Source: a virus (taxonomy: Duplodnaviria > Heunggongvirae > Uroviricota > Caudoviricetes). Taken from it: a DNA stretch of 57,499 bases. The translations under genes were made by a program, and so were the position numbers. The notes below the pieces were generated by a model. The model was not told the origin of the DNA. It did not search any database and saw only the letters and a list, made by a program, of their open reading frames with translations. Shown piece by piece: positions 42,316 to 45,449 of the stretch. Location of the stretch: IMG/VR virus record IMGVR_UViG_2541047758_000011. One strand, 5' to 3'. Numbering within the stretch: position 1 is the stretch's first letter; each line of letters begins with the position of its first letter.

Positions 42316-43409
42316 TTAATACTCCGTCACGTTTTCCTGTCGCCACGCCTCGTCATATTCCGATTTCGGCATATTGGCGATGTAGCTATATGGCGATCCT
42401 GATTCAAGTTGCAGGAACTGGTGCGATTGCTCGTCAAGGAACAACGGGACACCACCTTCCCAACCTTCGCCGTTACGTTGTTTTTCAAGCATCAAAACAG
42501 ATGCCGGAGATGCCAGTAGCTGTTCGTCCTTCTCTGACATCTTTTCACCACTCTGAACTCTCTGTAACGCTCTCTCGCGAGCCTTGTTACGCCAGATGAT
42601 GAAAAGGTTGTCTGTCAGGTCTGTTATCGCTCCAGAGCCTTTTACGTCCATTTTCCCGGTTGGTTTTTCTTCGCTGTCTCCTTTTCGCGAGTGAGTAACG
42701 AGAATGACGTGGGAGTTTGTTTTGTTTTTGAAGTCGCAAATCGAGTCAACAAACGCCTTCTGCCCGTTATAGTCATCGTCGCCTATGCCACATTTCATCA
42801 GGCTGTCGATGATGAATAACTGGATCCCGTATCGGCGGCGAGCGTAGTCGAATATTTCGATCAGCCTGTCGGCTTTCGCCGTTCCGGTCAGGCCAAACAC
42901 CCAAAGTCTTTCGTCATAAAATTTAAATGCAGAGTCAATTTCCAGCACTGGCGGAATCTTGCAGCACGTCGCCTGACGGGTAAGGCGCTTAAGGAGAATA
43001 CCAGGCTTCAGCTCAAGTGACGCGATGCACGTCTTCACACCCTGCCGCATTGCCTCAAGTGCCATATGCCCGACAACCTCCGTTTTTCCGTGACCGTTCA
43101 CACCATTGACCAGCGTCAACTCTGCCTCACGGAACTGGAATTTATCTGCCAGAGATTCCCACGGTGGATTAAACAGATACTGCTGCTTGCCGTAGAAAGC
43201 GTTGATAGTGTCCTGGTAAAACTCTCGCGCGCTGTAGAGTTCTTCAGGATCGAAGTAGGATGCCGTGCCGATGTACTGCCAGATTTCATCCTCGGTAACA
43301 CCGTTCATCAGGCATTCGTTGATGTCTTTGTACGGCAGAGTAACAAGACGGCAACGATGTTCACCGAGTCGGCTTGCGATTTCCCTTGCGGCTTCACGAC
43401 CAACATCAT
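42316..43409 (-). pseudogene. C-terminal (DnaB-like helicase) part of primase-helicase gene, separated from its 5' part by IS911
   Basis: ..LVNGVNGHGKTEVVGHMALEAMRQGVKTCIASLE.. Walker A and ..LFIIDSLMKCG.. RecA-fold motifs; the track ORF start at 43308 lies just outside the IS. Confidence 0.7.
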
Positions 43410-44659
43410 TGAAGTGGTCAACAAAAACTGGCCACCGAGTTAGAGTTTTTTCCAGTATCGATTTTCCGATTCGTTTGGTGGTAACCCACCATTATATTCG
43501 TGCGGTCTTAGTGCGCTGTAATATCCAACGATATAGTCCGTTATTGCGTGAGCTGCATCGCTGAAGCTTACATAGCCCGTCGCCGGCACCCATTCGTTCT
43601 TCAGACTCCTGAAGAAGCGCTCCATTGGGCTGTTATCCCAGCAGTTTCCACGCCGACTCATACTCTGCCTGATCCGGTATCTCCACAGTAACTGCCGGAA
43701 CTGCCTGCTCGTATAATGACTGCCTTGATCGCTGTGGAACATCACCCCGACGGGCTTACCACGGGTTTCCCATGCCATTTCCAGTGCTTTCATGGTAAGC
43801 CTGCTGTCCGGCGAGAACGACATGGCCCAGCCCACTGGTTTTCTTGCGAACAGGTCGAGAACAACGGCGAGGTACGCCCAGCGCTTACCCGTCCAGATAT
43901 AGGTCACATCACCGCACCACACCTGATTTGGCTCGGTCACGGCGAACTGCCGTTCAAGGTAGTTAGGGATAGCAACATGTTCATGACCACCACGTTTATA
44001 CCGGTAAGTCGGCTGCTGACAGCTGACCAGCCCCAGCTCTTTCATGAGTCTGCCAGCAAGCCAGCGCCCCATCTGGTAGCCTCTCTGGGTTGCCATTGTG
44101 GCGATGCTTCTTGCTCCGGCAGAGCCGTGGCTGATGCCATGCAGTTCAAGTACCTGGCTGCGTAATACAGCCCGTCTGCCGTCTGGCTTTTCAGGACGGT
44201 TTTTCCAGTATTTGTAGCTGCTGCGATGGACCCCGAACACATGGCAGAGAGTGGCCACAGGATAACGCGCCCTGAGTTTCCCGATTATCGAGAACTGTTC
44301 AGGGAGTCTGACATCAAGAGCGCGGTAGCCTTTTTTAATATTTCATTTTCCATTTCAATACGTTGTAGCTTTTTCCTGAGCTCACGGATTTCAATTTGTT
44401 CCGGGGTAATAGGGGAGGCTTTTGGTGTTTTTCCCTGCCGCTCATCACGTAATTGTTTCACCCATCGCGTCATTGTGGAAAGGCCGACATCCATAGCGCT
44501 GGCTGCATCTGCCACGGTGTAATTCTGGTCAACGACCAGTTGAGCGGATTCGCGTTTAAACTCTGCGCTGAAATTTCTTTTTTTCATTATGGCACCTGTG
44601 TTGTTCTGAGGTGAGCATATCACCTCTGTTCAGGTGGCCAAATTCAGTAAACCACTTCA
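43410..44659 (-). mobile_element. IS911, copy 2 (inverted relative to copy 1), flanked by 3-bp direct repeat CAT
   Basis: 1250 bp; OrfA 44285-44623 and OrfB 43440-44258 translate identically to copy 1; cat at 43407-43409 and 44660-44662. Confidence 0.92.
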
Positions 44660-45449
44660 CATCAACATCCATCGAGATGAATATTTCCTCAAACCTGTCG
44701 AGGTTGTGATACTCAAACTCAATCCACTGTTGCTTAGCGCCTTTCCCGCCACCAAACGGCACGGATAACGCCGAGATGCCGTATTGCGCATAGCTCATAC
44801 AATCAATTTCGCCTTCGCAAAGCACAACCGCCCTCACGCCAGCGTCCAGAGCCTGCCATCCGAACAGACAAGGTTCGCAATCACCTTCTGCCATAATGAC
44901 TTTCTTCCCGTCCGGGCGCTCAGTGCTGATTCGCTTGACCTGCAACAACTCACCATCGCGTTTGTACGGAAGCACCAGAGCATCCAGTTCTCGCTCTCCA
45001 TTCCACACCTTGCCGCTGACAACCTCGTAGCGCTTTACGACTTCTGGCGATATGCCACGCGATTGCAGGTACTCAAGATGGGATTCTGTTCTGGTAACGT
45101 AGCGGGCGATTTTCTTGCGATCAGGTCTGGAGAATTTCTTCTCACGTTTGGCATCGAAATGGTGATCGTCATCCTTGATACCGAGAAATGCTTTCGCTTC
45201 CTGCATAGCCTGATGCAGGTTAATTCCACGACATGCCATCCACAAATCAAGCATGTCACCGCCGTCTCCCTCAGCGAAATCAGCCCATTTTTTCTTGCCG
45301 CTAAGGTTGACCTTAAGGCTGTTTCCCTTGTCACCGTTGACGTTACCGGCAACCCACTCATGCCCCTCTTTCTTGCCATTTGGCAACAGGTGCGGAGCCA
45401 CCCTGTCAACCTGCGCCCAAAGCAGGTCGCTAAGTTCACTTGGCGTCAT
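44660..45449 (-). pseudogene. N-terminal (primase, Toprim) part of primase-helicase gene interrupted by IS911
   Basis: ..VVLCEGEIDCMSYAQYGISALSVPFGGG.. Toprim motif; reading frame runs into the IS. Confidence 0.7.

Follow-up and report, generated by a model that had tools for sequence, protein, structure and literature searches.

An IS911-group element splits the primase-helicase gene of a P22-like prophage, which is probably replication-defective

The window analyzed here, a stretch of 57,499 nucleotides deposited as the IMG/VR virus record IMGVR_UViG_2541047758_000011, carries a P22-like prophage, hereafter prophage B, whose primase-helicase gene is divided in the region 42316-45449 by an insertion sequence (IS). 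It is highly probable that an IS3-family element of the IS911 group transposed into this gene and that replication of the prophage's own DNA should fail after induction. The interrupted locus comprises the following features, given in window coordinates:

43410-44659, minus strand: complete IS3-family element of the IS911 group, 1250 bp, defined by its boundaries and by identical copies elsewhere
43407-43409, no strand assigned: first copy of the target-site duplication, CAT, from the flank sequence and an empty site with a single CAT
44660-44662, no strand assigned: second copy of the target-site duplication, CAT, from the same evidence
44660-45449, minus strand: 5′ part of the primase-helicase gene, codons 1-263 plus 1 nt, keeping E212, D261 and D263, without D291
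42316-43406, minus strand: 3′ part of the gene, comprising the rest of the Toprim domain, the linker and the superfamily 4 (SF4) helicase, with GHGKT at residues 368-372 and FIIDSL at residues 461-466

The IS occupies exactly 1250 bp, and at its plus-strand junctions CACGACCAACATCAT abuts TGAAGTGGTCAACAAAAACTGG on the left and CAGTAAACCACTTCA abuts CATCAACATCCATCGA on the right, the stretch from TGAAGTGGTCAACAAAAACTGG to CAGTAAACCACTTCA being 43410-44659. Two minus-strand open reading frames (ORFs) flank it, from 45449 to 44556 (297 aa) and from 43308 to 42316 (330 aa). An earlier note on this DNA had described a complete 1250-bp element between CAT direct repeats and had proposed to join the flanks in silico; the boundaries and both CAT copies are confirmed to the base, and the fusion of 45449-44660 to 43406-42316, with the IS and one CAT removed, yields 1881 nt that read without interruption through 626 codons to a terminal stop. 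The repaired 626-aa product is identical to WP_001308808.1, annotated as "toprim domain-containing protein", and the repaired gene differs from its best match, NZ_CP062855.1 (locus L001, 4001-5881), by two synonymous nucleotides and by no amino acid. The empty site in NZ_CP062855.1 has a single CAT, with ACATCAT followed directly by CAACATC, and reads CTTCACGACCAACATCATCAACATCCATCG across the junction; it equals the window sequence minus the IS and one CAT, and the reading as a simple insertion is therefore settled. A 3-bp match between flanks has by itself a chance probability of 1/64, and the case for an insertion is decisive because the repair exactly restores a known ORF. The simple transposition put forward in the earlier note is thus borne out by an intact 3-bp duplication, an intact IS and perfect repair to the protein of an annotated intact allele.

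The repaired protein is best described as a T7-gp4-like fusion of a Toprim domain and an SF4 helicase, for which primase and helicase activities are predicted. Pfam recovers Toprim_2 at residues 209-296 (E=3e-12) together with weak matches to AAA_25 and DnaB_C within residues 357-594; PHROG 239, "DNA primase/helicase", is matched with E=2e-171, and the structures of the T7 gp4 primase-helicase (5ikn, 6n7i and 1q57) match residues 191-539 with E~1e-23, Twinkle being next. The alignment to T7 gp4 pairs the acidic residues of the Toprim fold, E212 with E157, D261 with D207, D263 with D209 and D291 with D237 (full-length T7 numbering), the T7 residues being the metal-binding set of the primase active site. 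It also brings into register the SF4 motifs, including Walker A (GHGKT) and Walker B (FIIDSL). An N-terminal Cys4 zinc-binding domain is not found, with C73 the sole cysteine in residues 1-190 and no zf-CHC2 match in Pfam; in this respect the repaired protein resembles metazoan Twinkle, not T7 gp4.

The insertion point lies within the Toprim fold, between the first and second bases of codon 264; judged by the T7 gp4 alignment, E212, D261 and D263 fall upstream of the break and D291 downstream. Therefore, the stretch 42316-43409, taken in the earlier note as a DnaB-like helicase part separated from a Toprim primase part, also holds the last third of Toprim: the domain calls and the common strand stand, but the break falls within Toprim and not between the domains. 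On the upstream side, the 5′ ORF continues 104 nt into the IS and stops at 44556-44558, and the present product is a stub of 297 aa, comprising residues 1-263 and a 34-aa IS-encoded tail (MDVD-VKWFTEFGH...RRV before the stop), from which D291 and the end of the Toprim fold are missing, as are the linker and the entire helicase. On the downstream side, the first in-frame start is the ATG at 43308 (M297, aligned to T7 L243), opening a fragment of 330 codons. Between the IS-internal stop and M297, the helicase frame displays no ATG, GTG or TTG, and no Shine-Dalgarno match precedes the M297 ATG, where the sequence reads AACGAATGCCTGATG.

The gene sits on the minus strand in a lambda-type early-right operon, in which a cI-like repressor (47267-47917, plus strand), cro, cII, DUF2740, the O-family initiator and the primase-helicase follow one another; past a terminator-like hairpin come nin genes, Q, two tRNAs, lysis genes and head genes. 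The replication module around the gene comprises:

45557-46417, minus strand: lambda-O-type replication initiator, apparently intact (Pfam Phage_rep_O, E=1e-37; PHROG "replication initiation O-like")
45978-46063, no strand assigned: putative origin, four 19-20-bp TGTCACC-N5-GGTGACA-like iterons within the O gene, from a repeat search
42263-42286, minus strand: terminator-like hairpin and T-run just 3′ of the primase-helicase stop, in the tR2 position, from a terminator scan

This arrangement, an O-family initiator with internal iterons and an A+T-rich run (around 45940-45976) adjoining them, followed by a helicase gene, is that of a lambda-type replication module, of which the primase-helicase gene is the only helicase or primase. 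The initiator has the same length as the "replication protein" annotated in NZ_CP062855.1, where the gene order is the same. Moreover, Shigella phage Sf6 has its rep_origin annotated inside the initiator gene, in the same layout as the iterons of the window, and its tR2 at the place equivalent to the hairpin 42263-42286. The iterons at 45978-46063 may act as the origin, and both initiator and origin look intact. For P22-like Salmonella phages, a very distant O homologue has been described together with "a nonhomologous primase-helicase protein" that replaces the DnaB-like helicase (PMC10307801). The "Eru" types of Stx phages (PMC8044961) were considered as well and set aside, as Eru1, Eru2 and Eru3 described there differ from a fused Toprim-SF4 protein.

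The proposed course of events is as follows: (i) the IS911-group element would have transposed by the copy-out/paste-in route usual for the IS3 family, duplicating the target CAT; (ii) the cut after codon 263, within the Toprim catalytic fold, leaves a 297-aa stub without D291, linker and helicase; (iii) the 330-codon helicase fragment is left with neither a start codon ahead of it nor its own ribosome-binding site; and (iv) the O-type initiator and the origin are kept, the enzyme to be loaded by the initiator would be lost, and no replication of the prophage's own DNA should follow induction. Primase and helicase activity are both expected to be lost, and we infer the replication defect because the gene is the module's only helicase/primase, its Toprim domain is split and the SF4 helicase is gone from the product.

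Several considerations weigh against this account. The functional claim is drawn from sequence, and the gene would be essential in P22-like or lambdoid phages by virtue of its position and homology. T7 helicase fragments starting near residue 241 are active in vitro, and the product starting at M297 may retain residual helicase activity if it is expressed by read-through from the IS. The split gene might accordingly still work, its two halves, or the helicase half together with host primase, supplying enough replication function. The M297 fragment has every SF4 helicase motif seen in the T7 gp4 alignment and begins, linker included, at the equivalent of T7 L243, and the IS is oriented in the same way as the primase-helicase gene, so that read-through transcription is possible. 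On the other hand, the break in the Toprim fold parts D291 (T7 D237) from the other three acidic residues, the helicase frame lacks both a start codon before M297 and a Shine-Dalgarno match at M297, and it is DnaB, and not a gp4-type helicase, that recruits host DnaG; a working split gene is very unlikely.

Somewhat less probable is a defect that is real but bypassed in trans, by the O/P genes of a second prophage or by a superinfecting relative, prophage B being then mobilizable. Prophage A does lie in tandem with prophage B at thrW, with its own O/P-type replication genes, and relatives with an intact primase-helicase gene are common in E. coli; however, the O-like protein of prophage B is of another type, its C-terminal half differing and matching phrog_33384, with no sign of cross-reactivity, lambda P recruits host DnaB via its cognate O protein, and 43.3 kb with two IS copies would leave little or no terminal redundancy in a headful of P22 size. 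An assembly artefact, with the IS misplaced during repeat resolution and the gene really intact, is scarcely credible even though the source is a scaffold-level assembly (KE699876.1) and the two IS copies of the window are 100% identical, as if one consensus had filled both, since a misplaced repeat would not yield a precise 3-bp duplication at a site otherwise continuous with the intact allele, and the site of the second copy, too, exceeds its empty allele by exactly 3 bp.

The transposed element itself displays the full set of IS3-family features, which comprise:

44624-44659, minus strand: left inverted repeat (IRL), TGAAGTGGTTTACTGAATTTGGCCACCTGAACAGAG, identical to the start of a K-12 IS911A fragment
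43410-43445, minus strand: right inverted repeat (IRR), TGAAGTGGTCAACAAAAACTGGCCACCGAGTTAGAG, identical to the 36-nt IS911 IRR oligonucleotide in PMC2909936
44285-44587, minus strand: orfA, 100 aa, HTH_Tnp_1 in Pfam, its length in agreement with PMC2909936
44330-44336, minus strand: A AAA AAG programmed -1 frameshift motif, in the X XXY YYZ register of orfA
43440-44336, minus strand: orfB frame with the rve/DDE integrase core (Pfam rve, E=1e-31), open to the stop at 43440

The terminal inverted repeats of 36 bp are imperfect, with 25/36 matches, and run from TG to CA, the ends being TGAAGTGG and CCACTTCA. Slippage by -1 at A AAA AAG gives an OrfAB of 382 aa, read from 44587 to 43440, and the published IS911 proteins have the same lengths, 100 aa for OrfA and 382 aa for OrfAB (IS911 transpososome paper, PMC2909936). 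Thus the element combines an orfA with a helix-turn-helix and an rve-type orfB joined by an A6G frameshift, imperfect TG/CA ends and a 3-bp duplication; it looks functional, with no sign of a defect. A promoter scan returned no more sites than in shuffled sequence, and the promoter and terminator scans gave nothing useful within the IS. The stub ORF of the phage gene passes through the IRL and terminates 30 nt past the orfA start codon (44556-44590), and translation arriving from the phage pR operon would end within the start of the transposase gene.

Concerning the name of the element, identical (100%) copies are numerous in E. coli chromosomes and plasmids, and the RefSeq/PGAP label for these is "IS3-like element ISEc52 family transposase", whereas the Sf6 copy is labelled "IS911 family". 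DNA identity amounts to 94.9% with the IS911 annotated in phage Sf6 (63 mismatches and one gap) and to 98.5% and 95.6% with the two K-12 IS911A fragments; the IRL of the Sf6 copy differs at positions 9-11, reading GGCACACTG. The practice of ISfinder treats elements as isoforms above 95% protein identity or 90% DNA identity. In papers, IS911 and ISEc52 appear as two names side by side. The name IS911 given in the earlier note holds at group level, but the 94.9% identity to the Sf6 element and the ISEc52 label of identical copies favor the wording "IS911-group", which appears to be the accurate name.

The distribution of the gene and of its interruption was assessed by megablast against 5426 complete E. 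coli genomes. The uninterrupted gene is matched in 296 of these, 286 covering at least 80% of it, and this IS insertion is absent from all 286. In many complete E. coli genomes the flanks adjoin each other in a stretch of exactly 1881 bp, forming one coding sequence annotated as "toprim domain-containing protein", and in a sample of 40 of the ranked matches the gene occurs either in this 1881-bp form or, in O157:H7, in a 2907-bp form. Only two records (H1 and H2) cover the IS-containing query, and both are false positives, in which the gene is intact and an unrelated ISEc52 copy lies ~1.4 kb beyond. Named isolated phages with an uninterrupted gene include mEp043, Sf101, APC_JM3.2 and vB_EcoP-720R6, at 98.0-98.7% identity, and epsilon34, SEN22 and Oslo, at ~87% DNA identity. 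In phi24B and Min27, which like mEp043, Sf101 and epsilon34 are viable phages with the gene uninterrupted, and in many O157:H7 chromosomes, an allele spanning 2907-2909 bp is seen, as nucleotide matches only. The 2907-bp allele of Stx2a_F451 (NC_049924.1; locus L007, 1501-4407) displays an in-frame insertion of 342 aa in Walker A (GHGK, then ACPLNEP...YVATHN, then TEVV), presumably an intein with a homing-endonuclease domain, which starts with Ala and not with Cys or Ser.

An exact-sequence look-up of the 297-aa stub in an assembly collection returned only two contigs, scaffold KE699876.1 of GCA_000457655.1, the source of the window, and one from a similar place. A 37-mer spanning the IS junction is absent from species-representative genomes, and a 30-mer junction is absent from metagenome contigs. 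The identical IS copies, the flanks without amino-acid change and the rarity of stub and junction argue for an insertion that is recent and private to the strain GCA_000457655.1.

The second IS copy of the window, at 16996-18245 on the plus strand, is 100% identical to that at 43410-44659 and inverted with respect to it. It splits the immI anti-repressor gene, with positions 1-189 of PHROG 1726 on one side and 188-264 on the other, and is flanked by CTT at 16993-16995 and ATT at 18246-18248. The empty allele in NZ_CP019903.1 (locus L004) reads GCTCTTCTATTG and is exactly 3 bp shorter than the occupied site. The second copy is a simple insertion in which one base of the 3-bp duplication is mismatched (CTT versus ATT). 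A reading of the CTT/ATT flanks as lacking a duplication, hence as a rearrangement, is ruled out by this shorter empty site, and an inversion or deletion by recombination between the inverted copies is ruled out by the colinearity of each copy with its own empty allele.

Prophage B extends from 12763 to 56037 (43.3 kb) and is integrated at thrW, adjoining proA. A direct att repeat of 64 bp, at 12699-12762 and 56038-56101, overlaps the tRNA-Thr(CGU) gene (56056-56131), and the integrase lies at 54881-56041. The P22-like (Lederbergvirus-type) assignment follows from the head, ejection and tailspike genes, the immI region and the integrase-flanked att repeats. Prophage A, in tandem to the left, is of the lambda O/P type, with its integrase at 11539-12702 and its O and P genes at ~1739-3336; it ends at the same 64-bp repeat, and 1-12762 is 100% identical to a prophage in NZ_LR882057.1.

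A protein-by-protein comparison with Kapi1, a viable P22-like phage, finds full-length counterparts in prophage B for cI, Cro, cII, NinE, RusA, NinH and Q, as well as for holin, endolysin, Rz, TerS, TerL, portal, scaffold, coat and the gp4-, gp10-, gp14- and gp7-like proteins, with identities mostly of 90-100% and of 54% for Rz. The tailspike (13783-16149) keeps the conserved head-binding N-terminus. At the level of ORFs, this agrees with the earlier view that the structural and lysis modules look intact, and "replication-defective but otherwise intact" would be a reasonable description of prophage B. A second handicap is possible. The prophage measures 43,339 bp with both IS copies and 40,833 bp without them, and a P22 headful packages ~43.4 kb; with both copies present, terminal redundancy may be lost or small even if replication were restored.

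Further genes of prophage B are recorded here as side observations. A hexapeptide-repeat acyltransferase gene (13092-13763, plus strand) lies between attL and the tailspike, a typical place of lysogenic-conversion (O-antigen-modifying) cargo. Two free-standing HNH genes, at 27957-28541 and 26094-26588, both on the minus strand and carrying HNH_3+NUMOD4 and HNH_3+AP2, respectively, resemble homing endonucleases; they lie between head-completion and needle genes, at places where the genes of Kapi1 directly adjoin each other.

Both components of the interrupted locus are known and identical to annotated public sequences, the mechanism is textbook, and the case is one of ordinary prophage decay. 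For annotation, the three ORFs at 42316-45449 represent one pseudogene and one mobile element and not a separate "primase" and "helicase", and prophage B of GCA_000457655.1 is better classed as probably defective, although its late region looks complete. The locus is a clean natural knockout of a primase-helicase-type lambdoid replication module, usable for questions of essentiality, and bears on no open question. A further idea, which we regard as decidedly unlikely, is that the IS-locked prophage would be a non-propagating lysis and packaging device on SOS induction, with expression of the IS transposase coupled to induction. If so, the repressor, Q, the lysis genes and the headful-packaging machinery would be intact while replication is impossible, the unreplicated, integrated pac site would be packaged, with lateral-transduction-like transfer of the thrW/proA neighborhood, and strong pR transcription would enter orfA of the element, the stub ORF ending inside it.

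The closest known systems can be compared at the level of the event, the element, the enzyme and the module. As to the event, the P22-like Shigella phage Sf6 carries IS911 in its nin region (Casjens et al. 2004; Dover et al. 2016, PMC5630979). There, as in prophage B, the early-right operon of a P22-like temperate phage has one gene interrupted by an intact IS911-type element flanked by a 3-bp duplication (AAC/AAC in Sf6). In Sf6, however, the interrupted gene is the dispensable ninG, the IS is opposed to the operon and the phage is viable, whereas in prophage B the element disrupts the replicative primase-helicase and lies along the operon, the two elements being 94.9% identical. As to the element, it shares with IS911 (the Shigella dysenteriae prototype) and ISEc52 the length of 1250 bp, an IRR identical to that published for IS911, the 100-aa OrfA and the 382-aa OrfAB, the A6G -1 frameshift, the DDE/rve core and the 3-bp duplication, and differs in the IRL, at positions 9-11 relative to the Sf6 copy, and in the PGAP name, ISEc52. 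As to the enzyme, T7 gp4 and mitochondrial Twinkle display the same fusion of a Toprim primase domain, via a linker, to an SF4 RecA-type helicase, but the repaired protein belongs to a lambda-type module, beside an O-like origin binder, and not to a T7-type replisome. Finally, the replication module of P22-like and ES18-like Salmonella phages (PMC10307801) has the same order, a distant lambda-O homologue and then a primase-helicase, with 87% DNA identity for the epsilon34 gene and no difference in kind, the gene of the window being interrupted.

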